From Anaeroplasmataceae bacterium (GTDB taxonomy: Bacteria; Bacillota_I; Bacilli_A; Acholeplasmatales; Anaeroplasmataceae), in assembly GCA_051874255.1 (NCBI GenBank), contig JBJEFR010000113.1, forward strand, positions 421 to 64,420: DNA of 64,000 nucleotides, given 5' to 3'. The position numbers were made by a program, and so were the translations under genes. The notes below the pieces were generated by a model. The model searched no databases. It saw only the letters and a list, made by a program, of their open reading frames with translations, and had not been told where the DNA came from. Position 1 is the stretch's first letter; every line of letters starts with the position of its first letter. Of the stretch, positions 6,179 to 24,939 are shown piece by piece.

Positions 6179-6198
6179 CGAACTAGCTACTCCTTTTT
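6161..6198. terminator. Bidirectional hairpin spanning the stop codons of two convergent genes
   Basis: GGAATAGCTA (6168-6177) / TAGCTACTCC (6184-6193), 9 of 10 positions complementary, with a 6-nt loop. TTTTT follows on the plus strand and UUUUAUG on the minus strand. The plus-gene stop is at 6176-6178 and the minus-gene stop at 6187-6189. Confidence 0.55.
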
Positions 6199-6858
6199 AT
6201 TATTATTTTCATCTTTTTGCTTCTCACTTAATATTTCTTTAAGTATTTCTTCTCGCATATCACTTAAAATCTCTGAACGAAGCTTATCCTTCTCTTCTTT
6301 TAGCTTTTTATTTTTACTACTATTTAAGAATAAATTAACTGATTCAAGGATTATAATACCTACAAAGAATACAACTAATAATCCATATATTAAAGTTTTA
6401 TTTGAAGCAATTTTCCCTAGGTTTAAGAAATTAAATGTTCTTACATACTTTCCTACAAGCATATCCTCAGTAACACGTTCTATATCAACAATACCATTAT
6501 TGTTGTCTCCAAGCATCTCAAATCCATCCGTATATACTTCATTAATTCTATGAACTATATACATTCCTTCTGTTGAACCTTTAGATGAACGATATACTAT
6601 TATATCTCCTTTTTTTAATGTGCTATAATCACACTTTTTAAATATAATAGTATCCCCAGCATTAATTGTAGGCTCCATACTACTAGTAGGAACATAAGAG
6701 TATGAATATCCAAAATAGCTAACAGGCTTTGAAGTTCTAACAGCAATTACATTACATATTAGCATATATAATACTAATAATACTATAGTAATAGTTAAGA
6801 CTGTTCCGGATATTGTAAATATTTTTTTTACTTTTTTATTCATCGTCATCAGAGCCAT
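6187..6858 (-). CDS. SipW-type (archaeal/ER-type) signal peptidase I with a C-terminal TM and Lys/Glu-rich tail
   Basis: 223 aa with an N-terminal TM. Ser box PTSSMEPT, His box IVHRI, GDNN box, then a second TM (LIYGLLVVFFVGIIIL) and the charged tail KKLKEEKDKLRSEIL...KQKDENNNKKE. Overlaps the preceding gene by 23 nt. Confidence 0.8.
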   Translation of the reverse strand: MALMTMNKKVKKIFTISGTVLTITIVLLVLYMLICNVIAVRTSKPVSYFGYSYSYVPTSSMEPTINAGDTIIFKKCDYSTLKKGDIIVYRSSKGSTEGMYIVHRINEVYTDGFEMLGDNNNGIVDIERVTEDMLVGKYVRTFNFLNLGKIASNKTLIYGLLVVFFVGIIILESVNLFLNSSKNKKLKEEKDKLRSEILSDMREEILKEILSEKQKDENNNKKE

Positions 6859-9568
6859 GACTATCTATAATTTTTTTTCTCTCCTCAGGACTAAGATCAG
6901 TCCATCCATCAGCCTTTTTCTCAGCTTCCTTAGCCTGAGCCTCTAGTGCTTTACGTCTTATAGCTTCTCTTCTTCGACGTAGTAGCTCTTTAGGATCAAT
7001 ACTTTCCTCAACTGGAGTATCCTCTTCATCCTCTTCCTCATGAGCCTGAGCATTTTGACGATTTTTAGCTTCTAAGGCTCTTTGTCTTATAGCCTCTCTT
7101 CGTTTACGAAGAGCTTCTTTTATTTCGTCATCATTTGATGGAGAATTGCTAGAGATATTTTCAGTATTAGTTTGCTCCTCTGAAGCCTTCTTTTGAGCCT
7201 CAAGGGCACGACGTCTAATTATATCCCTATTACGTTCAAACATAGATCTAGAATCCATTTGAGTTGAACGCATACTTGGTTGATGAGTGCTTTGTTCATC
7301 TGAAGACTGAACGATATCAGAATCTAAACTAAATAATTCATCACGCTGTTGACTTTCAAGAGCCTCTCTTCTTCGTCTAAGCTTAGTTCTTGCATCCTCT
7401 TCCTTATGCTCATTATCTTCATCATCTTCTTCAATTACGGCTGTGCTATTTTTGTTTGCTAGAGCCTTTTGTCTAATAGCTTCTCTTCTTCGACGTAATA
7501 ATTCTTTTGGATCAAGTGTTTGTGTTGAAGTTTCTTCATCATCGTCCTCATCTTCAACCATATCATTTTCATCCATAGAATCTAAGGCCTTTATTCTTTC
7601 ATCAATGCTTCTTACTAAAGAATCATCGTCTTCATCTTCATCATCCTCTAGTTCTGCATTCTTTAAAGCTTCTTCCTTCGCTTTAGCTGCCGCAGCCTTT
7701 TGTCTAATTATTTCTCTTCGACGACGTAATAATTCCTTAGCATCAAGATGTGCCTTTTCAGCCTCAAGCTTACGCTCTTCCTCAGCAATACGCTCTTCCT
7801 CAGCAAGTCTTGCCTTTTCTGCTTCTTCACGTTCTGCCTTCTTACGTGCACGTTCCTCAGCTCTCTTTGCCTTCGCAGCATCTTGTTCAGCCTTTATTGC
7901 TGCACGACGCTCCATAAGCTTTGCCTTGGCTTCAGCCATACGAGCTTTTTCTGCAGCTTTTGCTTGATCACTTGCAGCCTTCGCGGCCTCACGTTCTGCC
8001 TTTTTACGTGCCATTTCTTCCTCATGAAGCCTTTGAGCCTCTTCTCTTTCACGAGCACGTTTTTCAGCACGTTCTGCCTTTTCCTTAGCTAATTTAGCTA
8101 AACGAGCTTCTCTTGCCTCTTGTTGACGTATCTTTTCTTCAAGCATTTGAATTTCTGCAAGAGTGTCATCATATTCCTTTTTAGTATTGTTATAATCAAT
8201 TTCTTTTAATCTTGTAACAGTTTCTAATACTTCTGATTTTTTCTTTGCTCTTTCAAGCTTAATTGGAAGTGGAACCTCATCGAAGCTACCTTCAATAGGC
8301 ATTTCAAATAATGGAGGATAAATAGAATTTAATACCTCCTGCATTTCTCTAAATACAAGCTCTAAGGAATACTTTTTCTCCATTCCTGAATTAACCTTAT
8401 CATCTAATGATTGTTGATAAAATTCTTGAGTTTTATTTAAGAAATACTCACTCATCTCAAACTTTTCAAGCTTTTGACTTGTTGGATTAAACTTATACTC
8501 ATCATCCATTTTAGAAAGCATTTTTGCCTTACGAGTAGTAAATTCCTTATATGGGGTATTTTCAGGGTCTAAATCAGTATCGCCATTAAAATATAGCATT
8601 GTACCTACAGCCTCTGACATAATACCATCAACTGTTTTAGCTAATTCATCTGGATACTTATTCTTCTTTTCCTTAACATTAACATCAAACGCTAATTCGT
8701 TATAACGATCAAGGAAAACCCAAGTATTATAACATACCTTAAACTCAGCATTCTTTAAAATAATATTAGTTTTTAAAATAGGAGGTGTTACCTCTTTATA
8801 GTTCTTTAAATCCTGCATTAATTTAGAAGAACGTAGAGTCTTATAATTTTCATGTATTGCTTGAGCTTTTTCAAATGTTTCACGGGCAGCCTTGATTTGG
8901 GCATCAAGCTGACGTTCCATCTTAACTGAAAGCTCAACCTTTACTTTAGTTTTTTCAAACTTAAAGCTATTTGTTACTGTCGTATTTTTAGTCTCATAGC
9001 TATCAAGATTCTTTTTCATAATTTGAACTCTTAATGATAAGAACTTACAAATACGATTGATTAATGTTTTTATAAACCTATTTTCATAGATTCCAATTTC
9101 ATCCTCAGCAAATGTAGTTAATAGCTTAGATGGGATTATATCTCCCTCTTCAGTAACTAACTTAATATTTTGAGTATGACTAGCCAAATGACGTACTGTA
9201 TCTGAATTAACCTTTTTTACCTTTTCCATAGGAACAACATCTTGTTCATATCGAATAGCTTTTTTAGGATCCTTTAATATTTTTGAAATACTTTTAAAGC
9301 ATGTCTCCAAAATAGGTATAAAAGACTTTTCAAATATTTTAGTCTCTCTTATTGTTTTCGAATAAACTGTACGAGAACCACCTTTAATTTGATTAAATAG
9401 CATATCACCTAAAGATGATTTTTCTCTAGCACTATCGAAGTTTTCGCTGAGAATGCGGTAAAATTCACTTACAGAATCATCATTTTCTTCTTCAGTTGTA
9501 GGAGGAATTATCTCTTCACTAGCACTTTGTAAAGATTCCTTTTCATTTACTTCTGCCACATTACTCAC
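6836..9568 (-). CDS. 910-aa cytoplasmic protein: ~470-aa globular N-domain, ER/K-rich helix, and six RRRREAIRQKALEA-type basic repeats separated by poly-acidic linkers
   Basis: Uninterrupted ORF with no TM or signal peptide. The short YENRFIKTLINRI segment resembles the N-terminal region of McrC-like partners. No PD-(D/E)xK nuclease motif was recognised. Confidence 0.6.
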   Translation of the reverse strand: MSNVAEVNEKESLQSASEEIIPPTTEEENDDSVSEFYRILSENFDSAREKSSLGDMLFNQIKGGSRTVYSKTIRETKIFEKSFIPILETCFKSISKILKDPKKAIRYEQDVVPMEKVKKVNSDTVRHLASHTQNIKLVTEEGDIIPSKLLTTFAEDEIGIYENRFIKTLINRICKFLSLRVQIMKKNLDSYETKNTTVTNSFKFEKTKVKVELSVKMERQLDAQIKAARETFEKAQAIHENYKTLRSSKLMQDLKNYKEVTPPILKTNIILKNAEFKVCYNTWVFLDRYNELAFDVNVKEKKNKYPDELAKTVDGIMSEAVGTMLYFNGDTDLDPENTPYKEFTTRKAKMLSKMDDEYKFNPTSQKLEKFEMSEYFLNKTQEFYQQSLDDKVNSGMEKKYSLELVFREMQEVLNSIYPPLFEMPIEGSFDEVPLPIKLERAKKKSEVLETVTRLKEIDYNNTKKEYDDTLAEIQMLEEKIRQQEAREARLAKLAKEKAERAEKRAREREEAQRLHEEEMARKKAEREAAKAASDQAKAAEKARMAEAKAKLMERRAAIKAEQDAAKAKRAEERARKKAEREEAEKARLAEEERIAEEERKLEAEKAHLDAKELLRRRREIIRQKAAAAKAKEEALKNAELEDDEDEDDDSLVRSIDERIKALDSMDENDMVEDEDDDEETSTQTLDPKELLRRRREAIRQKALANKNSTAVIEEDDEDNEHKEEDARTKLRRRREALESQQRDELFSLDSDIVQSSDEQSTHQPSMRSTQMDSRSMFERNRDIIRRRALEAQKKASEEQTNTENISSNSPSNDDEIKEALRKRREAIRQRALEAKNRQNAQAHEEEDEEDTPVEESIDPKELLRRRREAIRRKALEAQAKEAEKKADGWTDLSPEERKKIIDSHGSDDDE
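6935..7745 (-). repeat. Dispersed in-frame coding repeats (~40 nt cores) encoding (P)KELLRRRREAIRQKA
   Basis: Similar DNA words such as tagcttctcttcttcgacgta(g/a)ta occur at ~6961, ~7477 and ~7711. More diverged copies lie at ~7081, ~7201 and ~7361. Confidence 0.7.
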
Positions 9569-9591
9569 CTTTCCCCTTCTAGCTTATAATA

Positions 9592-11154
9592 TTAGCTTAC
9601 CTTCTTTAAATCATTAATAAAATCAATTGATACCTTAAATGCATTCTTACCAAATAGCTTATCAAGTAATGTAATTAATTGATCTAGCTCATTACGTAAG
9701 AATGATAGATTTAAGCTTTCAAATTTACGTAAAATCTTGTTACATAGCATATAATCTAAACCTTGAATTTCAGTCATTCCACACGCAATGTATACAGGAA
9801 CGAATAGTTTAATTTGCTTCATAATACGGTTACCAAACGCAATTTTGAATTTTTCTTGAATAAATTCATCTAGTTTAGCAAAATTTTCCATTACACGCGT
9901 AGATAATTGAATATCTCTTTGTGCTTGTTTAAATAATTCGTCTAAATATTCAAATGACATTTGAACATTTTCAGTATATGGTGCATCTACCAATTCAGCC
10001 TTATGGTTAATTACAATAGGTAGAGCACGGTCATAAACCTTATCTGTGATTGTAAATGTTGAGTCGTCCTTATTGGCTGTACCAACAAACCAAATATTTT
10101 GATTAATTAATAGCTTACCATTAATTAATAGCTTAGGATCTAATGGATCTGTACCTGGAACCAAGTCAATTAACCATTGAGTTGGATCTGGCATTTCCAT
10201 TACAGACAAGAACTCTGCAAAATAATACTCAATACGTGCTAAGTTCATCTCATCAAGTACTATAAAGTTAGGCTTATCACTATAACCTGCCATATATACA
10301 CTTCTTAAGAAGTCTGTCTCATTAAATCTCTTAGTAAACTCATTTAAATAACCTAAAAGCTCAGCACGGTCACGCCATGATGGTTGAACAGAAATAATAC
10401 TTGTAGGCTTATTAAAGAATTTTCCCATCGCATATGGAAGTGATGTTTTTCCTGTTCCTGAAATACCTTCAAGAATAAGAACCTTAGTTGCACCCATTCC
10501 ACCAAAGAATCTCGCAATTATTTCCTTTGAATAATATAGCTTTAATTGACTTGCAGCATATCCAATAAATCTATCAATTAATCCAGGTAAATCTAACATA
10601 TCATCACTTGACATAATAGTATATTCTGGATTTGACTTATAATATGTATCAACCTGATTAAGCTTAATAAATCTTCCTTGGAATATTTCTTCTTCCTCAT
10701 CATCCTCAGGCTTACCTTGTGGGTTAAATAAGTCATCAGGATTAATATCAGTATCTCCACCAGATATTTGACTTACACGAAGTGCTAATATCTTATTCTT
10801 TTCATCAACTAAATCAATTACCTTTTTATTTAGTAATTGTACTTGGTCAACTAATTCATCTTTTTCAATTTCTCTTCTTCTAAAACGGAAATATCTCTTA
10901 AATAATACAACAATTAAAGTAACTAATAAAACCACAAAGGCAATATTAATAAACAATACTATAATATATGCAACCCAATCAGACCAATTCCAATACTGAT
11001 TATGAATACTTGCGTCCTTTAAATCTGAAATATATCCTTTAATATCTGTGTAAAAGGCATTTTTAAATGCTCTTCCGATCGTTTTGAAGAATTTTCCAAT
11101 ATTTTTAAAAATAGTTTTTAAAAATTCAGTATAATACTTCGCAAATTCCTTCAT
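9592..11154 (-). CDS. Membrane-anchored AAA+ ATPase of the AAA_5 / McrB-like type
   Basis: 520 aa. N-terminal amphipathic segment, one TM (WVAYIIVLFINIAFVVLLVTLIVVLF) followed by KRYFRFRRRE, and a coiled coil. Walker A LEGISGTGKTS, Walker B FIVLDEMNLARIEYYFAEFLS, then VGTANKDDSTF and QPSWRDRAELLGY. Confidence 0.7.
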   Translation of the reverse strand: MKEFAKYYTEFLKTIFKNIGKFFKTIGRAFKNAFYTDIKGYISDLKDASIHNQYWNWSDWVAYIIVLFINIAFVVLLVTLIVVLFKRYFRFRRREIEKDELVDQVQLLNKKVIDLVDEKNKILALRVSQISGGDTDINPDDLFNPQGKPEDDEEEEIFQGRFIKLNQVDTYYKSNPEYTIMSSDDMLDLPGLIDRFIGYAASQLKLYYSKEIIARFFGGMGATKVLILEGISGTGKTSLPYAMGKFFNKPTSIISVQPSWRDRAELLGYLNEFTKRFNETDFLRSVYMAGYSDKPNFIVLDEMNLARIEYYFAEFLSVMEMPDPTQWLIDLVPGTDPLDPKLLINGKLLINQNIWFVGTANKDDSTFTITDKVYDRALPIVINHKAELVDAPYTENVQMSFEYLDELFKQAQRDIQLSTRVMENFAKLDEFIQEKFKIAFGNRIMKQIKLFVPVYIACGMTEIQGLDYMLCNKILRKFESLNLSFLRNELDQLITLLDKLFGKNAFKVSIDFINDLKKVS

Positions 11155-11182: not shown

Positions 11183-12163
11183 TTATTCAACAGTTGAATC
11201 ATTTGAAGAATTATCTTCTCCATTTTCCTTCATCTTTTCTTCTTCACTAATACTTTCTTCTTTTTTCTTTTGTTCTTCTAAAGCTTCTTTTCTTAATTGT
11301 TCAAGTAATTCTTGCTTCATCTTTTCCTTTTCAGCCTCTAGCTCAGCTCTCATCTTTTCTTTTTCTTCTGTTGCATTTGCTGAAATCTTTTGTGTCTTAA
11401 TTGACATAACATTGAATATTACCATTACAAGTTCAAAAATCAAGAATAAGATAGTAGGTATTATTATTACAATAATAAATCCCTTTTTAGGATTAGAAAC
11501 CCATTTAATAGTTTTTCCAAATCCGCTAAGCTTTCCAGTATATACAGCCTCTATATCAGACAATGATACATTTTGTGCGTATCCCTTATAAACTAAATTA
11601 GCTGCGCCTCCATTACTTGGATCTGCAGTATAAATTGTATAATCATATTGTGTACCTAAATAACAATCTCCTTGTGTTACATATCCGGTAACAGCACCAC
11701 TACTATTCTTTACAACCTCTACGATTCTATGGGTATTTAAAAATCCAGTAGCAGCTCCTGTTGGATTTGGTGATATAGTATCCCAGAATGTAATAATATC
11801 TCCAACCTGGAATTTTGTTTTATCCTTCTCTTTTACAACCTTAACAAGAATTAAATCATTTACCGTAAATGAATCCTTTCTTGCCACAGCCCTAGATTCA
11901 TCAACAATAGCCTCATCTGTTGAACCAGGACTCATTGATTGTGACAATACTACTTCATATCCACGACCAAATATAGACTTTACAGAACGAGCGTCACTAC
12001 CTTTAATTTGTGTTATAGAAAATATCAATAACAAGAAAATAAAAATATAAAATATAGTATTTAGAGTTATATTAACAATTTTAATAATTTTATCTTTCTT
12101 ACTTAAAGGAAGCTTATCATTTTCATCATTAACTTTTACTTCATCAATAGTATTATTTTCCAT
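11183..12163 (-). CDS. Second SipW-type signal peptidase I paralog with a long insertion and a C-terminal TM plus charged coiled-coil tail
   Basis: 326 aa with an N-terminal TM. Ser box LSQSMSP, His box NTHRIVEV, QGD box, a second TM (GFIIVIIIPTILFLIFELVMVIF), then EEKEKMRAELEAEKEKMKQELLEQLRKEALEEQKKKEE. Confidence 0.7.
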   Translation of the reverse strand: MENNTIDEVKVNDENDKLPLSKKDKIIKIVNITLNTIFYIFIFLLLIFSITQIKGSDARSVKSIFGRGYEVVLSQSMSPGSTDEAIVDESRAVARKDSFTVNDLILVKVVKEKDKTKFQVGDIITFWDTISPNPTGAATGFLNTHRIVEVVKNSSGAVTGYVTQGDCYLGTQYDYTIYTADPSNGGAANLVYKGYAQNVSLSDIEAVYTGKLSGFGKTIKWVSNPKKGFIIVIIIPTILFLIFELVMVIFNVMSIKTQKISANATEEKEKMRAELEAEKEKMKQELLEQLRKEALEEQKKKEESISEEEKMKENGEDNSSNDSTVE

Positions 12164-12263
12164 GACTTACCTCCTGAATACAAACACTTTATTATATTTT
12201 AACACAAATGAAAAAAAAATAAAACACCTTAAATATATATATATTTAAATATAATATCTATGA

Positions 12264-12292
12264 ATAAAAAAAGCCGATGCTAAAACATCGAC
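12264..12292 (-). terminator. Intrinsic terminator after the 334-aa TasA-like gene
   Basis: Minus strand reads GUCGAUG-uuuuag-CAUCGGC followed by UUUUUUUAUU. Confidence 0.8.
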
Positions 12293-12332
12293 TCTTTTAT
12301 TCATTTTTAGATTAATTTAAATAATTAACAAA

Positions 12333-13337
12333 TTAAGCTCTTTCAGTTGTGAATGATAAATTAATTGTTAATGTTTGACCCATAATTGCATCGAAGCAGT
12401 CAGCATCAAATCCTTCTAACCAGAATGTGAATCTTACACGGTAAACTAAGTTAGAGGTATTAGCAGATGTATAAATAGCGTTTGCCTCTGTACCAAATCC
12501 TGTAGTTAAAGTTGGCTCTGTTGGATATGAAACACCATTTAAAGCACCATCACTAACAGCTGATAAGTATGCATTTGCAGCATTAGTTTCACCTAATGTT
12601 TGTCCAAAATTATATGCTAGGTCATCTGCAGTATTTGAACCATTTCCAGCTTTTAATGTTACACCATTATCAAATCCAAATATGTTAAGAACTCTTTCTG
12701 AGGTACCCCATTCAACTGCGTTTTCAGGTTTTTGACCACCCTTACATAACTTTTGCATAGTATCGCGCTCTTCACTACCTTCATATACTTCAACAATTGA
12801 TCTTAATGCATTTACAGCATCAACCTTAACTGCAGTACCTCCGATAAATGAACCATCATCATAACTAAAGTCATTTAATATAACATATGATTTATCAGCA
12901 TAATCACTTTCTACGGTATTTCCAGTTGATGAGAAATAAACACTTTGAGAAGGTCCACTTGTACATACATATAAATCAAATTGTAAATACATTGATGATG
13001 CACCAGTACCTGCCTCAACTATTGCATTATTAGAGAATTTCTTAAATGCAGTAGGTGTTGCAACTGGAGTAGTTGCATAATCATATGTTAGTGGTTGTAG
13101 TTCTAATCCTGTAAGAGCTTGATTTGAACTATCTGTAAGGATTGTTACATCTGAACTAAATGTCTTTCCATCAGTTGATAGTAATACTCCGTTTGTTCCA
13201 CCTTGAACGTTAACCTTTAAATCAGCTGTTGCAGTAGCGTTCATTGTAAACCAAGCGTAAGTTGTAGTTCCTAATGCTACGACTGCAAATGCCATAGATA
13301 GGATACTCATCAATAATTTTCTTGAAATTTTTTTCAT
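12333..13337 (-). CDS. TasA/camelysin-like secreted protein with a SipW-dependent-type signal peptide
   Basis: 334 aa. Signal anchor ends in GTTTYAWFTMNA (compare GGTWAAFND in B. subtilis TasA). C-terminal motif FWLEGFDADCFD and terminal strand TLTINLSFTTE. Strong AAAGGAG RBS. Confidence 0.65.
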   Translation of the reverse strand: MKKISRKLLMSILSMAFAVVALGTTTYAWFTMNATATADLKVNVQGGTNGVLLSTDGKTFSSDVTILTDSSNQALTGLELQPLTYDYATTPVATPTAFKKFSNNAIVEAGTGASSMYLQFDLYVCTSGPSQSVYFSSTGNTVESDYADKSYVILNDFSYDDGSFIGGTAVKVDAVNALRSIVEVYEGSEERDTMQKLCKGGQKPENAVEWGTSERVLNIFGFDNGVTLKAGNGSNTADDLAYNFGQTLGETNAANAYLSAVSDGALNGVSYPTEPTLTTGFGTEANAIYTSANTSNLVYRVRFTFWLEGFDADCFDAIMGQTLTINLSFTTERA

Positions 13338-13426: not shown

Positions 13427-13455
13427 ATTATAACATATTTGGAAATTATATTCAA
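13427..13455 (-). promoter_or_regulatory. Sigma-A type promoter for the 334-aa TasA-like gene (leader has no riboswitch)
   Basis: Minus strand reads TTGAAT - 17 nt - TATAAT, about 90 nt upstream of the start. Confidence 0.65.
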
Positions 13456-13460
13456 TACAG

Positions 13461-14903
13461 TTATTCCCAAATTGTTACAAAAGTCCATTTTAAGTCTTCT
13501 GGATTATCTGAACGAGCCCATACCTCTTCATCAAAATTCCATGGGGTAATTTCACCATTAGCGTCTAGCTTACCCCAGCCTTTAAATTTGTGGATTCCAT
13601 TTATTGAATAGATGTCCTTGATTGGACTTTGTTCACTGATTTTTTGACCTTGTATTTGATGAACAACCTTTGTTCCTGAATTAATATACACACCTTGCTC
13701 TTCATCATATACCTTGAATCCTGAATTTACTACCTCTCCTGTTTCAGGATTTGTAATCATGTATGTAAGTTCAACCGGTTCCGTTTGAATTTCAAATGAA
13801 GTGAAAGCCATCTTCATTTGAATTGTTTGATTCCAAATTGAATCCATACAGTCAGCATCCCAACCTTCAATCCATAGGAATATATTCATCTTAGCTGTAC
13901 CATTTTGACCATAATTATTTTCTTTGTTTAGATCAAGAATAGTAGCTCCCTCAAGAGTATCAAAACCCTTATAGGTTTGTGGAATTGACGAATAAGATAT
14001 TTCATTTAATACCTGACCTGTTTCATATCCACGAACATTATTGTAGTATGAAAATCCTGCATTTTTATTAAAATCATATCTCGCACCTATTGGCCCAACA
14101 TAATAATCTTCTGTTAAATCGGTTGCATAAGATCCAACTCCTGTACCAATCTCATAGATTTTGTAATTATTGTCTCTTACACCATTGTTTGTGATGCAGG
14201 TTGAAAACCTTATTGCATCAGACGCAAGAGTTTTGAATTCAAAATCAGGTTGGTTATCTTCAGATTTATCATATCTGAATAGCTCTCCTGTTAGGGGATT
14301 ATATGTATCAAATGAACCTGCTAATCTATTAGGGAAACCAATAGAATCAGCATTTTTAACAGTCAATTCAGTCTTGGGAACATATTCTCCATTGTAGACT
14401 AATTCTCTACTTGAAAAATATACCCTTCTATCTGACGCATCATCAGCCATGAAATACAAATCTAAATTAATAAATTCAGTATCTCTAACTGTCTTAACCT
14501 GGTTAAATAAATTTTTGAAATTTTCTCCATCTGTTGAGGTAACAGGCTCAAGAGACATTTTTTGAGCAAATTCTTCTTCATAGTTATCTGCATCTAGGTA
14601 TTCTGTTGTACCTGATGCATTCTTAAATGTGTAGCATGGCTCTTTATCTATATAACCAATACCATATCCATTAGCCTTAGCCAATATAGCCACCTTTATT
14701 TCTTTAGCAGATAACTGGTTTTTATAGTTTTTACCATCAATAGATATTTTTACACCATTCGCAGAATTAACCTCTAATTCCATATCATCAAACCAAGCGT
14801 TTGTGTTAAGCTTAAACCACGCAAATGTAACAGTCCCCGCTACTACTATAAGTAGTAATAGTGAAAATAAACTAATATAAAGTTTTTTAGACAAATTGAT
14901 CAC
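13461..14903 (-). CDS. TasA-like secreted protein with a C-terminal Listeria-Bacteroides-repeat-like extension
   Basis: 480 aa with a GTG start. Signal anchor ends in GTVTFAWFKLNT. Motif LWIEGWDADCMD, then IQMKMAFTSFE. The C-terminal ~110 aa ends in HKFKGWGKLD...PWNFDEEV...TFVTIWE. Confidence 0.6.
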   Translation of the reverse strand: MINLSKKLYISLFSLLLLIVVAGTVTFAWFKLNTNAWFDDMELEVNSANGVKISIDGKNYKNQLSAKEIKVAILAKANGYGIGYIDKEPCYTFKNASGTTEYLDADNYEEEFAQKMSLEPVTSTDGENFKNLFNQVKTVRDTEFINLDLYFMADDASDRRVYFSSRELVYNGEYVPKTELTVKNADSIGFPNRLAGSFDTYNPLTGELFRYDKSEDNQPDFEFKTLASDAIRFSTCITNNGVRDNNYKIYEIGTGVGSYATDLTEDYYVGPIGARYDFNKNAGFSYYNNVRGYETGQVLNEISYSSIPQTYKGFDTLEGATILDLNKENNYGQNGTAKMNIFLWIEGWDADCMDSIWNQTIQMKMAFTSFEIQTEPVELTYMITNPETGEVVNSGFKVYDEEQGVYINSGTKVVHQIQGQKISEQSPIKDIYSINGIHKFKGWGKLDANGEITPWNFDEEVWARSDNPEDLKWTFVTIWE

Positions 14904-14930
14904 TTGTTATCAACCCCTTTATTAGTTATA

Positions 14931-15034
14931 TTAAAAATAAAAGTTGCCACCTTTATTTTTACAAGAATGACAACTGGCTATCCTTTTTGGACCCTGTAGC
15001 TTTGCGTCACTAGATTACTCTAGTTTTGCCAACT
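14931..15034 (-). promoter_or_regulatory. c-di-GMP-I (GEMM-I) riboswitch candidate with intrinsic terminator, in the leader of the 480-aa TasA-like gene
   Basis: Minus-strand RNA: AGUUGGCAAAACUAGA-GUAA-UCUAGUGACGCAAAGCUACAGGGUCCAAAAAGGAUAGCCAGUUG, then GUUGUCAUU...GGUGGCAAC-UUUUAUUUUU. It shows the GCAAA, GNRA-capped hairpin and ACGCAAAGC signature of GEMM-I. Confidence 0.78.
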
Positions 15035-15049
15035 ATTAACACATAATGT

Positions 15050-15077
15050 ATTTTACCACATTGCCAAATGTTGTCAA
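15050..15077 (-). promoter_or_regulatory. Sigma-A type promoter driving riboswitch copy 1
   Basis: Minus strand reads TTGACA - 16 nt - (TGg)TAAAAT, ending about 15 nt upstream of the aptamer. Confidence 0.65.
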
Positions 15078-15086
15078 TAAATAATT

Positions 15087-15827
15087 TTAGATTATCTTTT
15101 CATCGTATGCACTAAATGACATACCTATTTTGATAGAACCACCACTAATTGAGTTTTCTCCTTCATCAGTACAATCAAGATCTTCACCATCAAGCCACAT
15201 TATAATAGAATATTTTATAACATCACCTGGCTTAAAGGTTTTAATTGTTTCTGTAAAAATAGTCATATCAGTAAAAGTTTTCACTGTATGAAGCTTTTCA
15301 AAGGTATAATGAGTTTCGTTTGCTGGATCTTCATACTTTTTATATACTATTCCTTCAGTATCATCACCCTCGAAAACCCAAAATCTTACGGCACTATCAA
15401 CATTTCTAGTAACTGAAGTAATATTTAGTGTTGCATCAATATTACAAACCTCAGTTCCTTCATTCTTTAAATAAAATGTATATCCTATATAATCCCCAGC
15501 CTTAGATTCATATCTACCACCACCGCTATTAATTATTGGATATTTATTAACGCTTCCCATTTCTATAGGCTGAGCATTAGCTAAAAGATTTCCAGTTAAA
15601 ACCTGTCTTGCTCCATTAGGATCATCTATTTTTTCATATAAACTAATACCAATTCCACTTAAATCATCAGGAACGCTAATAGTAAATCCTCCTGTGCTCG
15701 TACCATAGAAGGTTACAACTCCAATGGTTGCTGAAAGTAAAAGGAAAATTATTAGTAATATTATTAAGATTTTCTTTTTTCTAAACAATGATACTGATTT
15801 ATCAGTAACTACATCTCTTTTACTCAT
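15087..15827 (-). CDS. TasA-like secreted protein (divergent signal-peptide junction)
   Basis: 246 aa with a signal anchor ILIILLIIFLLLSATIGVVTFYGTSTGGFT. FYLKNEGTEVCNI segment, motif MWLDGEDLDCTD, and terminal strand SIKIGMSFSAY. Confidence 0.55.
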   Translation of the reverse strand: MSKRDVVTDKSVSLFRKKKILIILLIIFLLLSATIGVVTFYGTSTGGFTISVPDDLSGIGISLYEKIDDPNGARQVLTGNLLANAQPIEMGSVNKYPIINSGGGRYESKAGDYIGYTFYLKNEGTEVCNIDATLNITSVTRNVDSAVRFWVFEGDDTEGIVYKKYEDPANETHYTFEKLHTVKTFTDMTIFTETIKTFKPGDVIKYSIIMWLDGEDLDCTDEGENSISGGSIKIGMSFSAYDEKII

Positions 15828-15842
15828 AACTTTCCTCCTTCT

Positions 15843-15948
15843 TTAAAAAATAAAAGTTGCCATATCCTTAATATGATACAGCAACTGGCTATCCTTTTGG
15901 GACCCTATAGCTTTGCGTCACTAGATTACTCTAGTTTTGCTTTAACCA
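15843..15948 (-). promoter_or_regulatory. c-di-GMP-I (GEMM-I) riboswitch candidate with intrinsic terminator, in the leader of the 246-aa TasA-like gene
   Basis: Minus-strand RNA: GCAAAACUAGA-GUAA-UCUAGUGACGCAAAGCUAUAGGGUCCCAAAAGGAUAGCCAGUUGC, then an 11-bp terminator stem GUUGCUGUAUC/GAUAUGGCAAC followed by UUUUAUUUUUU. The aptamer core is nearly identical to the copy at 14972-15034. Confidence 0.78.
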
Positions 15949-15949
15949 T

Positions 15950-15978
15950 ATTATAGAATAATTTATTTTGATAGTCAA
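15950..15978 (-). promoter_or_regulatory. Sigma-A type promoter driving riboswitch copy 2
   Basis: Minus strand reads TTGACT - 17 nt - TATAAT, immediately downstream of the stop of the GGDEF-EAL gene. Confidence 0.7.
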
Positions 15979-15984
15979 TTATAA

Positions 15985-17679
15985 CTATTCTTCTTTGTCA
16001 TCATCTTCATCAGCTTCATCTTCATCTTCTTCCTCATCTTCATCAGCATCAGCCTCTTGAGGAGAAGGTGTTTTCTTATCATTATCTTCTTCATTAGCTA
16101 CATTTGTATCATCTTGTGATGTATTTACATCATCTTGTGTTGATGTATTTGTATCATCTTGTGATGTGTTCACATCATCAACTGTAGCTGCAGCATCATT
16201 TTCTTCATTATTAGCTGTAGGTGTATCCTCTACTTGTGAAGCCTCAGTCTTTGGTTTAGCTTCTTCGGCCTTCTTAGTATTTTCCTCCCACTTACGATAT
16301 CTAATGAAATCTAAAACCTCTGTCTCTGGCATAGGCTTTGAATAATAATAACCTTGACCATAAATAATATTTTGTGATTTAACATAGTCGACATTTTCCT
16401 TAGTTTCAATTCCCTCTGCAACAACTAAACGTTTTGTTAATTCAGCTGATTCAGTAAGCATTTTTACAAACTTTTCTCTTATTTCATCATTAGAATTTTC
16501 ATCAGCTAAGAATTTTCTATTAAGCTTAATCATGTCGATAGGTTCTTTTTGAATACGAGTTAATGTTGAATAGTCAAGCTCAAATCCATCAACAGCTGTC
16601 ATAAATCCGAAATCTCTTAGCTTCATTAGATTTTGCTTTACATTATCAACCTTTTCAAACATTGCAAATCCGCCAATTTCTAATATAACACTTTTTGGAT
16701 TTACTGATGCTTTTTTAGCAACTAAAATCAAATCATCAGCTAATGATTCATAGGTTAACTGCTTAATAGATAGGTTTAAGGAAATATGAGCATTTCCTTC
16801 CTCCATAAGCTTTTGAACATCACTTAGCATCTTTAATGCTAAAGTAAGTCCCCATTTACCTACCCAATATATATCACCTGATTGATCCATAATATTAATG
16901 AATTCTGCTGGTGGTAGAATACCACGCTTTGGATGGTTCCAACGCATTAGGGCTTCAAATCCATAAATATTATTGCTTTCAAGATTCATAATTGGTTGAT
17001 AATATAGGCAGAACTCTTTATTAGCAATAGCCTGCTTAACCTCTTTGAAGAACTTAAAGTTAGAAGTTTCTTCCTTAGTTAATGTATTATAGAAGACAGT
17101 ATATTTTGAACCGCCTTCTCTTTTTGAGATATATGTTGCAAGCTCAAGATTTTTAATTAAATCTGGAACAGTTTTACCACATGAAGGATATAAGCATACT
17201 CCTGCACTAGCTGTTAAAACGATTGACTCACTTGTAGATACAAACATTTTTTGTTTGACATCATTTAATAATGCCTCTGCAATCTTACAAGCATTTTCAT
17301 AGGTTAAATTTTCTTTAATAAAGATTAAAAACTCGTCATTGTTATACTTAGAAATTACAGTACGATATGGTAATCTTTTAGAAAATCGGTGTGCTAATTC
17401 CTGTAGGAATTCATCACATTGTTCTCTACCAAAAATTTCATTAATATTTGTAAAGTTATCTATATCAATATATATAAGTGTAAAATCACCAAATTTTCCA
17501 ACCTTTTTAATATATGAAGCGATAGCCTTATTCATATCATTTTTGGAAATAGTTTTATCATTAAGAACTTCATTTTCCTCTTTAAATCTCTTTACATTAT
17601 ATTTTATTAGGAAAAAGATTAGTACTGATATTAAAATTACTACTACTATAGCCACACATGCTAGGATTATTTCTTTCAT
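15985..17679 (-). CDS. Membrane-anchored GGDEF-EAL protein, degenerate in both domains, with an acidic repetitive C-terminal tail
   Basis: 564 aa with one N-terminal TM. The GGDEF position reads NNDEF. The EAL domain keeps FEALMRW, EGIE and QG, but has EIGG where E-x-T-E is expected and VDGFELDYS where DDFGTGYS is expected. The tail is rich in D/E/T/N. Confidence 0.75.
   Translation of the reverse strand: MKEIILACVAIVVVILISVLIFFLIKYNVKRFKEENEVLNDKTISKNDMNKAIASYIKKVGKFGDFTLIYIDIDNFTNINEIFGREQCDEFLQELAHRFSKRLPYRTVISKYNNDEFLIFIKENLTYENACKIAEALLNDVKQKMFVSTSESIVLTASAGVCLYPSCGKTVPDLIKNLELATYISKREGGSKYTVFYNTLTKEETSNFKFFKEVKQAIANKEFCLYYQPIMNLESNNIYGFEALMRWNHPKRGILPPAEFINIMDQSGDIYWVGKWGLTLALKMLSDVQKLMEEGNAHISLNLSIKQLTYESLADDLILVAKKASVNPKSVILEIGGFAMFEKVDNVKQNLMKLRDFGFMTAVDGFELDYSTLTRIQKEPIDMIKLNRKFLADENSNDEIREKFVKMLTESAELTKRLVVAEGIETKENVDYVKSQNIIYGQGYYYSKPMPETEVLDFIRYRKWEENTKKAEEAKPKTEASQVEDTPTANNEENDAAATVDDVNTSQDDTNTSTQDDVNTSQDDTNVANEEDNDKKTPSPQEADADEDEEEDEDEADEDDDKEE
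16105..16180 (-). repeat. Imperfect 21-24 nt tandem coding repeats (DDVNTSQ/DDTNTST units) in the acidic tail
   Basis: The word atcatcttgtg recurs at 16108, 16129 and 16153. Confidence 0.6.
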
Positions 17680-20138
17680 TAATTCCCACCTGCTTTTCCA
17701 CTTGTTTTATTTTCACTTGCAACTTTACCAGTTTTTAATAATGCAAAAGCATCTTCCTTTGATAAAGCTTTACCTATATAGTATCCTTGGATAATATCGG
17801 CACCAAACTTTGCAACGATATCCTTTTGAATCTTAGTTTCTACACCTTCACAAATTACCTTATCTCCTAATTCCTTAGCAAGAGATATAATTTTTGAAGT
17901 TAAAACCTTACTAAAACGGTCAGTTTCAATATGCTTAATAAATTCCTTATCAACCTTAATAGTATCAATAGGTAGCTCCTTTAAATACAACATTGATGAA
18001 TATCCAGTACCAAAGTCATCAAGATGCACAGAAATACCACGATTCTTTAAAATCTTTAATTTCTCAACAACAGTTTGGAAGTTTTCCATTAGGAATGTTT
18101 CTGTTACTTCCACTGCAATAGAACCTGGCTGAAGATTATTCTTTTCAAATTCATCAAGTAAATCAGCAACGAATCCAGCTTGAACGATTTGAGCAGGACT
18201 GACATTTACTGATATATGAATATCATATTGTTCCATTTCTTTTGCTGTTTTTAAAACATCCTTAGTAATAAAATTACCAACATCGATAATAAATCCATTT
18301 TTTTCAGCTAACTCAATATAAACCTGTGGAGATATTCCCGCATATTTTGGATTATTCCATCTTAATAAAGCTTCAAATCCACAAACTCTTTCTTGATTGA
18401 TTTCATATTGTGGTTGATAGAACATTACGAATTCGTTTTTAGCAATAGCTTGCTTCAAATCCTCTTCCATTTCTCTATCCTTTTGGGCCGCATTTTCTAG
18501 ATTAGTATCATATTTAGCAACCATTCTACCTGCAGAATTTTTAGCACGCTCACAAGCTATTCTTAGCTTATCAATTAGCATATCGTGAGTTGTTTCACAA
18601 TCTCCATCCATATCAGATCCTAAAAGACCTACAGCAGGACGAAGCATTATTTCATTATTATTTATTTCTATAGGTGCCTTTAATTCATTAATTAATGTAT
18701 CTGTTTTCATCATCGCATCAGCTTCATTATGCTCTGTAGTTAATAGTACAAACTCATCTGCACCTATATGAAATACATGGTATCCTTCATATATTTGATG
18801 TAATACATTAGAGAAAAATGCAAGTACATCATTTCCGGCCTTAAATCCTAATAGGGTATTTACATTTTTAAATCCCTTTAGATTAGTAATTAAAAGTAAA
18901 TATGGATCTCCTACAGCCTTATATTTAGCTTTAGCTTCTCTATAACATCTATCAAGAACAATAGCATTATCATCAGCTGTTACAGCACTCTTTGTAGAGC
19001 TTGAAATTAGTATTTGTTCATTATTATATTCTTCAGTTATTACTCTTCCTACGATAGAATAATCACCGCTTCTTTTTAATGACATAAATTCAAAATAAAC
19101 ATTCTCTTCTACCTTTTCACCATTTTCATCTACTGGTGGTACATATTCAAGTACAAAGGCTTTTTGTGCCTTTATTGCATCAACAAGATTAATTCCCTTT
19201 ACTAAATTAAGCTCCGCAAGGGACTTAATAGGAACAATATGATTTGGAAATGCTACTTTAAATGATTTATTATATTTGACAATACGACCATTACTCTTAG
19301 CAATCAAAACTATATTAGCTGTTTTGGTATTTACACCTGCATCAATTCCTGATGATTTAATTAATTTCTTAATTAGTAGTATAAGTACCACTGCAAATAA
19401 AATTAATACTAATGAAATTCCACCAATATACGCAAATCTTAATTTTGAAAGATTACTAGAAAATTGAGTAACTAACGTTTTATCAACAACTCTAACTAAA
19501 TTAAATCCCATGAAATCTTTTATCGCCATATATGCGTCTATTTCATTATTATCACCAACTAAAATATCTAATTCTATTGTAAATACTTCATCAGATGCTA
19601 ATCCTTCAATACATTTATTTACTAAAGCCTCATCATTTGATTTACTTAAGACAGTTATAAAGTTGTTTGTTAAATAACTAGGATTTGATCCTAAAATAGT
19701 ACCATTATCAGCTACAATAAGAATAGGATTAATGTTTTCTAAGCTACAATCTATAGCAACCTTATCTAATAGTTCATTTAGAGGAACCTTTACTACCTGT
19801 ATATCTTTTTTTAGGTATAAAAAATAACCTGATCCTGATTCTTCAACATCACTTGCACTAGCGATTATGTAATTTGATTCACCAAAGACATCAATATCAA
19901 CATTAGCAGACTCAAATTTAGTAGAATCCTCTAAAAATAAAGCATTGTAATTAGATATTTCTGAATATATCCATGATTCGGCAGTACTTAAATGACTAGA
20001 TGTTTGAGCAAGCGCATTATCATTAGAAATAGTTCCGACACCTACTTCATAAGTCACTGTACATCCCAAGAAACATAAGAATAAAAATATTAAGATTATT
20101 ATATACGTTTTTAAGTCCTTAACACGCAACTCGCCCAC
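17679..20138 (-). CDS. Sensor GGDEF-EAL protein with a canonical EAL phosphodiesterase domain and a degenerate GGDEF (GADEF)
   Basis: 819 aa. N-terminal hydrophobic segment, a ~220-aa extracytoplasmic region, then a TM. The EAL motifs FEALLRW, NVS, EVTE, DDFGTGYS, KVDK, EGVE and QGYY are all present. The track start is GTG at 20138; a TTG at 20129 preceded by AGGTGG is an alternative. The stop overlaps the next start as TAATG. Confidence 0.8.
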   Translation of the reverse strand: MGELRVKDLKTYIIILIFLFLCFLGCTVTYEVGVGTISNDNALAQTSSHLSTAESWIYSEISNYNALFLEDSTKFESANVDIDVFGESNYIIASASDVEESGSGYFLYLKKDIQVVKVPLNELLDKVAIDCSLENINPILIVADNGTILGSNPSYLTNNFITVLSKSNDEALVNKCIEGLASDEVFTIELDILVGDNNEIDAYMAIKDFMGFNLVRVVDKTLVTQFSSNLSKLRFAYIGGISLVLILFAVVLILLIKKLIKSSGIDAGVNTKTANIVLIAKSNGRIVKYNKSFKVAFPNHIVPIKSLAELNLVKGINLVDAIKAQKAFVLEYVPPVDENGEKVEENVYFEFMSLKRSGDYSIVGRVITEEYNNEQILISSSTKSAVTADDNAIVLDRCYREAKAKYKAVGDPYLLLITNLKGFKNVNTLLGFKAGNDVLAFFSNVLHQIYEGYHVFHIGADEFVLLTTEHNEADAMMKTDTLINELKAPIEINNNEIMLRPAVGLLGSDMDGDCETTHDMLIDKLRIACERAKNSAGRMVAKYDTNLENAAQKDREMEEDLKQAIAKNEFVMFYQPQYEINQERVCGFEALLRWNNPKYAGISPQVYIELAEKNGFIIDVGNFITKDVLKTAKEMEQYDIHISVNVSPAQIVQAGFVADLLDEFEKNNLQPGSIAVEVTETFLMENFQTVVEKLKILKNRGISVHLDDFGTGYSSMLYLKELPIDTIKVDKEFIKHIETDRFSKVLTSKIISLAKELGDKVICEGVETKIQKDIVAKFGADIIQGYYIGKALSKEDAFALLKTGKVASENKTSGKAGGN

Positions 20139-22236: not shown

Positions 22237-24939
22237 CTATTCTTCTTTTACTTTCTTTTTATGATTATATATCCATAAGAAAGCATAAGCTATAGCATAT
22301 AATAGTGCTAATATTAAGAATATTATACACAACTTGCAAGACATTGCAATTCCAATAATAGATAATATAAGCTCTACTAATACCATTAATCCAGATACTA
22401 TTATAAATATAAGATTATCGTATTTCTTCTTTAACACTAAGATGAATACTAACACAAATATTATATATAGAACTATAATACCTATATTAATAAAATGTAG
22501 TATGCAAGAGCTACTATTATTTTCAATAAATACAAACTCAGATAAGCTAGTGACCATTGTTTTTAAGTTCCCATCTTCAATAACATATGTTCCAACCTCT
22601 AATGTATCAGATTTTATAATTTCTTTTGCTTCTCCAGCCACTACTAAAACCAATCTAAAGCTATTTAAATCAGCTGGTAGCTTAATGCTTAAACAAATTG
22701 GTTCATTTGTTATAGAGGATAAATTTATTTCAGTATTATTATCATCTACTAGCTTTATTTTATAAACATAGCTTACCTGCTCATTATTATTTAAAATAGC
22801 TTTGTAATTATCTGTTTTATCATTAGAAACACTTAAATTATATTGTGAAGGTAAACCATTAGAATAAATAATAGAAACATCATTACTCTCCATTTTAGTA
22901 GACATAATATCTAAAATAGCTTCCATTTTAGGTATTTCATTATAATTTATATCACCAACAAAACTTGCGATTACCTTGTAGCACCCAACCTCTCTTTGAC
23001 TATTTGACTCATATGTTACCTCTACTCCACTAGGAAGAGCTCCACTAATAAATATACTATGAATATTTCCATCATATAGGATTTTCTGTGATTCAAAGCT
23101 AATATTGGACATATCATAAGTAGCTTTATTTATAACGAATAAATAATTTAAATCTGCAAGAGTATTATCATTCCATATATAATTATCATTAATAGTTATA
23201 ATTACATATTGCTCTCCTGACTCAGTTCTTTTATTATTTTCTACATTGTATCCTTCGTGGTTATCAATTATATATATTTTTTCAGTACCATCATATGTAT
23301 AAATAGTTGTATCATATACTGGCTTTGATATAGGGCATCTATTAATTATAAAATCATATTCTATATCATCAATTTTACCATCATTCCATTGGTAGTTATT
23401 GTCAGTTAATGAAATTAATACCTTATAATTTCCAGCATTTGTTTGTTTATTATTAGATATTTTATATCCTGGATTTGAAGCAATAATATACTCTTGCTCC
23501 TGACCATTATATATATAATTATTTGTATTTTCCAATGGATACATTACACTACATCTACTAATTGTATATTCACTAAATATGCTATAGTTAACCTCATTAT
23601 ATAATACATTAACCTTAGCTTTATATTTTCCGGCAATAATGGGAGCACTAGATAATTTAGCATCAATTATTGAATAATATTCAATAGATAATCCTATTCC
23701 AAGCATTTTTTCAAGCTCTTCTTTTCCCTCTAATATGACATCAGCCTTAGCCCCATCATATTCCTTATCAGATACATTTAATGTAATAGTAACCTCGTCT
23801 TTATCATAATCACATAAATTATCAGTATTACTACAGCTTACTGTTAAAGATTTTTTATCTTCACTTATTTCAAAGGTCAAGTCATGAATATGTGAAGATG
23901 TTGTTATCTCTAATTCTGCTTCACTATTTACTTTAGCTATATATCTTAGTCCATCATTTAATACTGATGCATAATAGCTCGTTTTGGCGACAATATTATT
24001 GATTGAGGTACTATCTAGTATAGAAGCATTTTCTGTAATAGTACCACTAATTACTGTTGTTGTATCAAATAAAACCACTGACATTGTATCTAATATTTTA
24101 GCTCCTGAAAATATAACCATAGGAGTTTTTGTCATTAAGCCAATATTTTCTGAAGCCGCCTTTAATTCACCAAATAAATTAAAAGTACTTTCATTATAAA
24201 TATCATATTTAGTAGATTCTAATGATGCTTCATAAATATTTATAGTACCATTTTTATTATATATACCTATCTCATTTTGGCTAAATGAAGAATTATAAAC
24301 ATTTAATGTACCAGCTGCTAAATATATACCATTTTTACTATTTCTTATTATAGTATTATAAAGATTTATCACTCCACCATCAGCATAAATAACGGCTGCC
24401 TTTGATCCCTTATTTGAATTGCTTATATCTAAATTATATAAATTTACTACTCCAGCCTCCATATATATAAAATCACTATATGATGAAGAAATATTACCAT
24501 TAGAGATACAATCATAAATATTTAGAGTTCCATCATACATTACAATTTCCGTATCTCCTGAAATATTATGTCCATTTATATCAAGATATACATTTCCTGA
24601 TATTTCTTGATACTCACTATCAATATCAGAAGTTAAATAATAATAACCATCAGTGCCTATATTCGATAAAGAATTTATTGCCTCAAACTCATATTCATTA
24701 TCTTCTATAGTTCTTACTAATACCTCATAGCTGTCTTCACACTCACAAGTATAAGAAATAAAATAAGATCCATCTTCATTTACTCTTTTACTATTCTCAT
24801 CTAATACATAAGAATGCTCATGCATTGTATCAGATAATAAAGTTAAATTATTATTATTATCAAAACCAAATTCATTTAAAAAAATAGCGCAAGAAAAAAC
24901 ACAAAAAATTATAAAAATTAGCATTTTACACTTCTTCAT
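22237..24939 (-). CDS. 900-aa surface protein: signal peptide, parallel beta-helix-like repeats, ~4 MBG-like (YDG...AG.Y) repeats, and a C-terminal triple-TM anchor
   Basis: Repetitive N(L/V/I)YN...G(I/T)...N segments (for example GGVINLYNTIIRNSKNGIYLAAGTLNVYNSSFSQNEIGIYNKNGTINIYEASL). Repeats such as YTYDGTEKIYIIDNHEGYNVENNKRTESGEQYVIITI. The last ~100 aa contain three hydrophobic helices. No LPXTG. Confidence 0.6.
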   Translation of the reverse strand: MKKCKMLIFIIFCVFSCAIFLNEFGFDNNNNLTLLSDTMHEHSYVLDENSKRVNEDGSYFISYTCECEDSYEVLVRTIEDNEYEFEAINSLSNIGTDGYYYLTSDIDSEYQEISGNVYLDINGHNISGDTEIVMYDGTLNIYDCISNGNISSSYSDFIYMEAGVVNLYNLDISNSNKGSKAAVIYADGGVINLYNTIIRNSKNGIYLAAGTLNVYNSSFSQNEIGIYNKNGTINIYEASLESTKYDIYNESTFNLFGELKAASENIGLMTKTPMVIFSGAKILDTMSVVLFDTTTVISGTITENASILDSTSINNIVAKTSYYASVLNDGLRYIAKVNSEAELEITTSSHIHDLTFEISEDKKSLTVSCSNTDNLCDYDKDEVTITLNVSDKEYDGAKADVILEGKEELEKMLGIGLSIEYYSIIDAKLSSAPIIAGKYKAKVNVLYNEVNYSIFSEYTISRCSVMYPLENTNNYIYNGQEQEYIIASNPGYKISNNKQTNAGNYKVLISLTDNNYQWNDGKIDDIEYDFIINRCPISKPVYDTTIYTYDGTEKIYIIDNHEGYNVENNKRTESGEQYVIITINDNYIWNDNTLADLNYLFVINKATYDMSNISFESQKILYDGNIHSIFISGALPSGVEVTYESNSQREVGCYKVIASFVGDINYNEIPKMEAILDIMSTKMESNDVSIIYSNGLPSQYNLSVSNDKTDNYKAILNNNEQVSYVYKIKLVDDNNTEINLSSITNEPICLSIKLPADLNSFRLVLVVAGEAKEIIKSDTLEVGTYVIEDGNLKTMVTSLSEFVFIENNSSSCILHFINIGIIVLYIIFVLVFILVLKKKYDNLIFIIVSGLMVLVELILSIIGIAMSCKLCIIFLILALLYAIAYAFLWIYNHKKKVKEE

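Follow-up and report, generated by a model that had tools for sequence, protein, structure and literature searches.

The minus strand of the 64,000-nt stretch of Anaeroplasmataceae DNA analysed here (the window) carries two very similar leaders within a single gene cluster, and the second of these, ahead of the gene for a 480-aa protein, raises the question of whether it is a working riboswitch, what it would sense and in which direction it would act, or whether it is just an inert repeat of the first. Along this strand the cluster reads in the order of two GGDEF-EAL genes, switch a (copy 1), a 246-aa gene, switch b (copy 2), the 480-aa gene, a 334-aa gene, a SipW-like signal peptidase gene and the genes of an AAA_5 ATPase and a DUF2357 protein. 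Copy 2 is, in our view, probably a class I c-di-GMP riboswitch that has a sigma-70-type promoter of its own within this Anaeroplasmataceae secreted-protein cluster, and its likeliest mode of action is that of a transcriptional ON switch.

Class and structure of the second aptamer

An Rfam scan of the whole window returned two c-di-GMP-I matches, both over the full model and both with E-values of about 1e-8. Copy 2 (14966-15040, minus strand), which the first-pass annotation had proposed to be a second c-di-GMP-I (GEMM-I) aptamer, matches the RF01051 covariance model from position 1 to 87 of 87 with an E-value of 3.4e-8, far below chance, and with 55.8 bits against a gathering score of 35 the model does not fail; copy 1 (15951-15877) reaches 57.7 bits. 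The P2 hairpin of copy 2 (15029-15004) has a GUAA loop and thereby the GNRA tetraloop feature, P3 occupies 15001-14972, and the two helices align to the model with one non-standard pair. Both are kept in seven b copies, that is, copy 2 and its counterparts in related loci, with compensatory changes at positions 25-40 and 29-36. Like other members of RF01051, copy 2 combines the GNRA-loop P2 with the junction GACGCAAAGC, which holds the intercalating A47 and is invariant in 27 of the 27 aptamers collected; the intercalating-A feature (Vc2 A47) in GACGCAAAG is present with an A at 15003, and all invariant aptamer positions, A47 included, are intact. All testable RF01051 features are present in copy 2 apart from the C at position 92, where a U is aligned and a C comes next. 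Judged from its sequence, copy 2 is therefore a genuine member of the c-di-GMP-I riboswitch class, and its class, fold and likely mechanism would be those of the textbook.

Both copies and the alignment of the b leaders were searched for a P1 helix joining the 5' flank to the stretch behind the pocket, and no conserved pairing was found. Since the predicted transcript start, at about 15044-15042, also lies only some 12-14 nt ahead of the G20-equivalent base, we treat the aptamer as P1-less, like the Cd1 aptamer of Clostridioides difficile, which is devoid of P1 (PMC9262584). Two other pairings were dropped: that of UAGUU in the 5' flank with AGCUA of P3, seen in the single-sequence MFE structure, is absent from the other b leaders and was abandoned as a mechanism, and a slipped P3 (GCU with AGC), which alifold placed in the terminator state, is unsupported, as all of its pairs are invariant.

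The promoter that had been read as TTGACA-16-(TGg)TAAAAT is indeed present on the minus strand (15050-15077), with the -35 element TTGACA at 15077-15072, a 16-nt spacer and the extended -10 element TGgTAAAAT at 15058-15050, and a consensus scan, which places TAAAAT at 15055-15050, gives it an 11/12 match in addition to the TG. It begins 10 nt beyond the stop codon of the 246-aa gene (15089-15087, minus strand). Between 11000 and 18000 there are only two 11/12 promoter sites, each of them directly upstream of one aptamer. A third promoter-like site of 10/12 (13427-13455, minus strand; TTGAAT, 17-nt spacer, TATAAT with TG) falls into the 123-nt gap ahead of the 334-aa paralogue, where an aptamer is absent. 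At the other end of the b leader, a Shine-Dalgarno sequence, AAAGGGG (14920-14914), and the GTG start codon of the 480-aa gene (14903-14901; together 14901-14920, minus strand) were read from the sequence and are conserved in relatives. The leader as a whole folds with z = -3.8 compared to dinucleotide shuffles.

Related loci and the ligand pocket

By means of the 480-aa protein, 25 related loci were collected, and each was scanned with Rfam. A b copy resides immediately upstream of the 480-aa orthologue in L001/L014/L016, L002, L006, L020, L021/L022 and L025, hence in six lineages besides the window, with regulated proteins that are 41-59% identical; the L025 cluster has it as its sole riboswitch. 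The Rfam scan detected no b copy in L017, L018 and L023/24 or in the more distant L003-L005 and L007-L011, and BLAST revealed no degraded extra or remnant copies in any related locus. Neighbour joining of the orthologues places every b-positive locus in one clade that also has two b-negative members, a topology that fits one gain of the b copy followed by losses. The promoter box TTGACAA... occurs in the six leaders with upstream sequence and has the form TTGACAAC in five of the six, with TAAAAT or TATAAT as the -10 element (the L021/L022 leaders are truncated on the 5' side and stand outside this comparison), and the tail CCAGUUG-UCA is common to every b copy. At the same intergenic position of L017 (3850-4010) and L023 (960-1120) there is no b aptamer, yet a strong TTGACA...TATAAT promoter, so that the internal promoter has been kept in more relatives than the riboswitch.

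The cores of the two copies in the window (GCAAAAC to CCAGUUG, 59 nt; 14971-15029 and 15882-15940) differ at 2 positions, and alignment identified exactly those two differences, GCUACAGGGUCCA versus GCUAUAGGGUCCC, that the first-pass annotation had quoted. Its wording that the aptamers differ at only a few positions is accurate for the core, but both ligand-contact positions just outside the core differ as well, copy 2 having G where copy 1 has A (position G20) and U where copy 1 has C (position C92). In copy 2, the G at the position of Vc2 G20 is 15030 (model position 11) and the U aligned to Vc2 C92 is 14970, followed by a C at 14969; in copy 1, an A (15941) takes the G20 position and a C the C92 position. 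The contact made by G20 is of the Hoogsteen type and that made by C92 of the Watson-Crick type. In Vc2, G20 reads one guanine of the ligand while C92 pairs with the other (PMC6140456, PMC5888326).

How unusual these bases are was gauged on 99 unique aptamers from metagenomes, sampled arbitrarily among those that share the ...AGCCAGUUG core. A C directly follows GUUG in 98 of them and a U in one, the UC tail occurs in none, and A at position 20 is found in 21 of the 99. By contrast, every b copy, like the third aptamer of another related locus (L013_3), has a U aligned to C92. Position 20 is G throughout the b copies and alternates between A and G in the a copies of the relatives. In terms of sequence, then, A20 of copy 1 is a common variant and the U of the b copies a rare one, yet conserved in all of them. 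In two further loci (L010, L011) the distance from P3 to the first C varies by one U, and spacers of 2-3 nt before that C are tolerated, which suggests that the tail is flexible. Natural variants at position 92 reportedly still bind c-di-GMP through alternative pairings. In Vc2, the C92U substitution weakens the response to and the binding of c-di-GMP but does not abolish it (bioRxiv 10.1101/617340), and in Cd1, where the pairing base is C87 of G86-C87-C88, C87A retains residual binding (PMC9262584). By analogy, the U at the ligand-pairing position probably lowers the c-di-GMP affinity of copy 2 relative to that of copy 1. Read conservatively, copy 2 is a c-di-GMP sensor of lower affinity, with the ligand accommodated either by a G-U wobble or by the next C shifting in; if so, the two gates would have different thresholds.

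The best surviving alternative leaves the fold untouched and changes the ligand or the threshold. The G20/U92 b copy would prefer 3',3'-cGAMP, its G read by G20 and its A paired with U92, or would need far more c-di-GMP, the A20/C92 copy 1 would respond to cGAMP or to both dinucleotides, and the operon would integrate two signals or two thresholds. What speaks for it is that the copies differ precisely at both contacts, yet at just 2 positions of the core, that the U is so consistently kept in the b copies and L013_3 compared to the metagenomic relatives, and that G20 and C92 are base-specific contacts whose substitution is known to matter: G20A makes Vc2 a bispecific aptamer (c-di-GMP 53 nM, cGAMP 120 nM; PMC6140456), and Vc2 G20A/C92U binds c-di-AMP (PDB 3MUV, PMC7288161). 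We nevertheless regard this alternative as unlikely. The C one nucleotide on (G-U-C) could pair, the more so as L010 and L011 tolerate spacers of that kind, Vc2 C92U still responds to raised c-di-GMP, and the free change between A20 and G20 in the a-type copies of close relatives argues against a strict change of ligand.

The enzymes in the window bear on the same point. A membrane GGDEF protein (484-1554, minus strand) has GGEEF and the canonical Asp, and is thus an ordinary diguanylate cyclase and not of the Hypr type, and a cGAMP synthase was not seen within the window, where this canonical GGEEF enzyme is the only cyclase. The two GGDEF-EAL proteins (15985-17679 and 17679-20138, minus strand) have degenerate GGDEF motifs (NNDEF and GADEF) and intact EAL motifs; the pair is located directly upstream of the riboswitch-controlled cluster, an arrangement kept in L014, L017 and L020. 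With a cyclase and intact EAL proteins in the window, the organism can plausibly make and degrade c-di-GMP, which we infer to be the ligand of copy 2.

A more specific form of the alternative takes the two switches as a conserved pair with complementary pocket changes, A20/C92 upstream and G20/U92 internally, the internal one being a natural C92U-type variant that reads another cyclic dinucleotide or c-di-GMP at a very different threshold. The other ligand may, for example, be 3',3'-cGAMP bound in the orientation opposite to that in GEMM-Ib. This proposal is decidedly improbable in our judgement; if true, the cluster would base its decision on two inputs or two thresholds. The A20 signature of GEMM-Ib is absent from copy 2, which has G, and present in copy 1 (15941), where A20 would be the mark of GEMM-Ib/cGAMP or bispecific variants. 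As to engineered counterparts, copy 2 resembles the Vc2 C92U mutant in its U92 and copy 1 the G20A mutant in its A20 (PDB 3MUR, 3MUM; Smith et al. 2010), but Vc2 is a P1-containing Vibrio aptamer, while copy 2 is built on a P1-less, Cd1-like scaffold.

Terminator overlap and the direction of switching

The expression platform is an intrinsic terminator at 14933-14975 (minus strand) that was defined by folding and by comparison across 7 leaders. Its 5' arm AGUUGUCAUU (14975-14966) forms 10 pairs with the 3' arm GGUGGCAACU (14951-14942), which is directly followed by the U-tract UUUAUUUUU (14941-14933). The loop is A-rich and, at 14 nt, larger than the limit of 8 in the consensus terminator scan, which for this reason missed the hairpin; on its own the hairpin has -11.1 kcal/mol and three G-U pairs and is relatively weak. 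The first four nucleotides of the 5' arm (AGUU) are also the end of the P3 3' strand, and they are followed by the nucleotide that aligns to C92 and the bases behind it. The terminator forms when the full leader is folded freely and is lost once the aptamer pairs are imposed on the fold. Across the 7 orthologous b leaders the terminator pairs are formed in 98.6% of cells, as opposed to 36-69% with the partner strand slid. Covariation is thin, with one pair changed on both sides, three on one side and 6 of 10 invariant, and in these leaders it does not exceed the shuffle control, which is explained by the 5' arm belonging to, and being constrained by, the aptamer. Pairwise alignment confirmed that the outer pairs of the stem (AGUUG/CAACU) and the U-tract are common to both copies and that the inner stem and the loop are unrelated. 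The description of copy 2 as having a different expression platform applies to these inner parts; in kind the platforms are the same, since in both copies the 5' arm of the terminator is the 3' strand of P3.

With its 5' arm shared with P3, the terminator cannot coexist with the aptamer. Such mutual exclusion is also found in the GEMM-Ib ON switch of Geobacter pilM, in which ligand binding leads to read-through (PMC9262584), and not in Cd1, and from this we infer an ON switch for copy 2, a direction that rests on thermodynamic folding and architecture. The pilM switch differs in that it has an A at the G20 position, senses cGAMP and possesses P1, whereas copy 2 has G. Without ligand, AGUU of the P3 3' strand and the following GUCAUU would pair with GGUGGCAACU, the terminator would form ahead of the U-tract and transcripts would end at about 14933. 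Binding of c-di-GMP would keep the shared bases in P3 and the ligand pocket and thereby block the terminator, so that at high c-di-GMP RNA polymerase would read into the 480-aa gene and would probably go on to transcribe the genes of the 334-aa paralogue and the SipW-like peptidase.

The opposite direction, a transcriptional OFF switch in which c-di-GMP binding promotes termination, appears very unlikely. Among the studied aptamers Cd1 is the nearest in sequence (AGCCAGUUGCC tail, no P1), and it is indeed an OFF switch (PMC9262584), but its terminator can form together with the aptamer and the competition comes from a separate antiterminator (PMC9262584), whereas the b terminator uses aptamer bases directly, such that no terminator remains beside the U-tract once the aptamer is enforced, and alifold revealed no conserved alternative antiterminator in the b alignment. 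Copy 2 shares with Cd1 (C. difficile, RF01051) the lack of an evident P1, the control by a transcription terminator and a P3 ending in AGCCAGUUG, as in the Cd1-like Firmicutes subfamily (PMC9262584). It differs from it in the U that replaces the ligand-pairing C (C87 in Cd1, C92 in Vc2), with a C one nucleotide later, in the predicted ON direction, since the terminator overlaps P3, and in its location within an operon, behind an internal promoter, in a MAG of the Mollicutes-related Anaeroplasmataceae.

Least probable of all is a reading in which copy 2 is decaying or inert, a recent repeat or gene-converted copy with a pocket damaged by C92U and a hairpin that would be a constitutive weak attenuator: its 2 core differences within the genome, against 4-7 to the b copies of other genomes, are compatible with recent conversion, a U sits at a ligand-contact position, and L017, L018 and L023 have lost the b copy but kept promoter and gene, yet G20, the UCA tail, the TTGACAAC promoter and the paired terminator are common to seven lineages, the invariant positions are intact, the covariance score is as high as that of copy 1, and the L025 cluster has no other riboswitch. 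That the b element was kept while the regulated protein diverged to 41-59% identity argues for function and against a recent inert repeat, and its promoter, tail and terminator in six other lineages support the original suggestion that copy 2 is a retained, functional duplicate. Within genomes, a and b copies differ on average at 5.2 core positions compared to 7.0 between b copies, which, together with the count for the window, is suggestive of gene conversion between copies about 900 nt apart, albeit as a weak signal and in this genome only. In AGUGAC, the b copies of the window, L002 and L021 carry the U of the a type; the remaining b copies have C there.

Some further features of the terminator were noted. 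Its loop AAAAAUAAAG (14951-14962) is complementary to its own U-tract CUUUUAUUUUU (14933-14943), and in L002_b the base that interrupts this complementarity shifts on both sides to match. With the aptamer enforced, loop and U-tract pair with each other, and the feature is present in 5 of the 7 b leaders. The loop also resembles the Shine-Dalgarno region AAUAAAGG (14914-14923).

The regulated cluster and its setting

The copy 1 element (15855-15978, minus strand) comprises a promoter (15978-15950), the aptamer (15951-15877) and a terminator (15886-15855), and controls the 246-aa gene (15087-15827). The consensus scan found no terminator between this gene and the b promoter, and transcripts that pass switch a would thus meet switch b as a second gate, while those from the internal promoter would see switch b only. 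More than one c-di-GMP-I switch gating the same downstream genes in series, as proposed here, resembles the triple tandem c-di-GMP-I riboswitches Bc3-Bc5 of Bacillus thuringiensis (Zhou et al. 2016, as cited in PMC12452182). In the window, however, a gene and a second promoter separate the switches; a true adjacent triple exists in the related locus L013. There, three c-di-GMP-I aptamers of 55.8, 58.3 and 71.3 bits (1129-1370, plus strand) follow each other at 4-6 nt, with a homologous cluster of secreted-protein genes downstream of them; the locus belongs to a MAG of an uncultured Bacillales bacterium. At position 20 the three aptamers carry A, A and G, a terminator follows the third only, and the third has the same GUUGUCAUU tail as the b copy. 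The series layout with an internal promoter and the paired pocket differences are features of interest, and neither is without precedent. The succession of promoter, switch, gene, promoter, switch and genes represents a natural case of serial switches with different pocket bases, which could be used for testing how threshold or specificity depends on variants at positions 20 and 92 when the scaffold lacks P1.

The gene regulated by copy 2 (13461-14903, minus strand) encodes a 480-aa predicted secreted, beta-rich protein of an uncharacterised family, as judged from the ORF, a structural model and homologues. It matches a protein from an Anaeroplasmataceae MAG with 100% identity. The probably co-transcribed genes (11183-13337, minus strand) are those of the 334-aa protein (12333-13337), a paralogue of the 480-aa protein (E 2e-18), and of the SipW-like signal peptidase (11183-12163), and L014, L020 and L021 have the same gene order. 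The peptidase matches the NCBIfam SipW model NF046067 with an E-value of 7.7e-13 and 48 bits, below the curated cut-off of 190. The 246-aa protein, likewise a paralogue, shares the C-terminal motif W-x-[ED]-G-x-D-x-D-C with the 480-aa and 334-aa proteins. Pfam and NCBIfam yielded no match for any of these three, and Pfam none for 27 homologues of the 480-aa protein.

The first-pass annotation had called the 480-aa gene TasA-like, a designation that the data do not support. The search of the PDB with a profile of the 27 homologues gave no match, Foldseek against the PDB with an AlphaFold model (pLDDT 85) gave TM values of about 0.1 with TasA not among the matches, and hhalign of the 480-aa family against TasA returned a probability of 6.8%. 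Homology to TasA/camelysin (Pfam Peptidase_M73) finds no support in sequence, profile or fold and was rejected. The only pointers towards TasA are the SipW-like neighbour and the signal-peptide motif GT.T.AWF, the N-terminal signal of the 480-aa protein carrying AGTVTFAWF, of which GTVTFAWF is invariant in the homologues. What the sequence data allow is to describe it as a putatively secreted protein of an uncharacterised family beside a SipW-like peptidase. A search for literature linking c-di-GMP riboswitches with TasA or SipW found none in the library searched, and among the titles listed by a search on Acholeplasma, Anaeroplasma and Mollicutes none concerned c-di-GMP riboswitches in these organisms. 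The locus would place c-di-GMP riboswitch control in the Anaeroplasmataceae, barely studied gut relatives of the Mollicutes, and the riboswitch link makes this secreted family near a SipW-like peptidase a candidate surface or matrix system.

Several other features of the window may be mentioned. Downstream of the cluster (6187-6858 and 6836-11154, minus strand) lie the genes of a second signal peptidase (Peptidase_S26), the DUF2357 protein and the AAA_5 ATPase; the DUF2357 protein has 910 aa with a long charged repeat region, and its pairing with the ATPase is reminiscent of McrBC-like systems. An ORF of 3849 aa (25022-36571, minus strand) and its neighbours of 900 aa (22237-24939, minus strand) and 372 aa (36589-37707, minus strand) gave no Pfam match. 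Finally, an S10-Clostridia ribosomal protein leader (RF03136; 60772-60871, minus strand; 39.8 bits against a gathering score of 35.1) is located ahead of a ribosomal protein operon.
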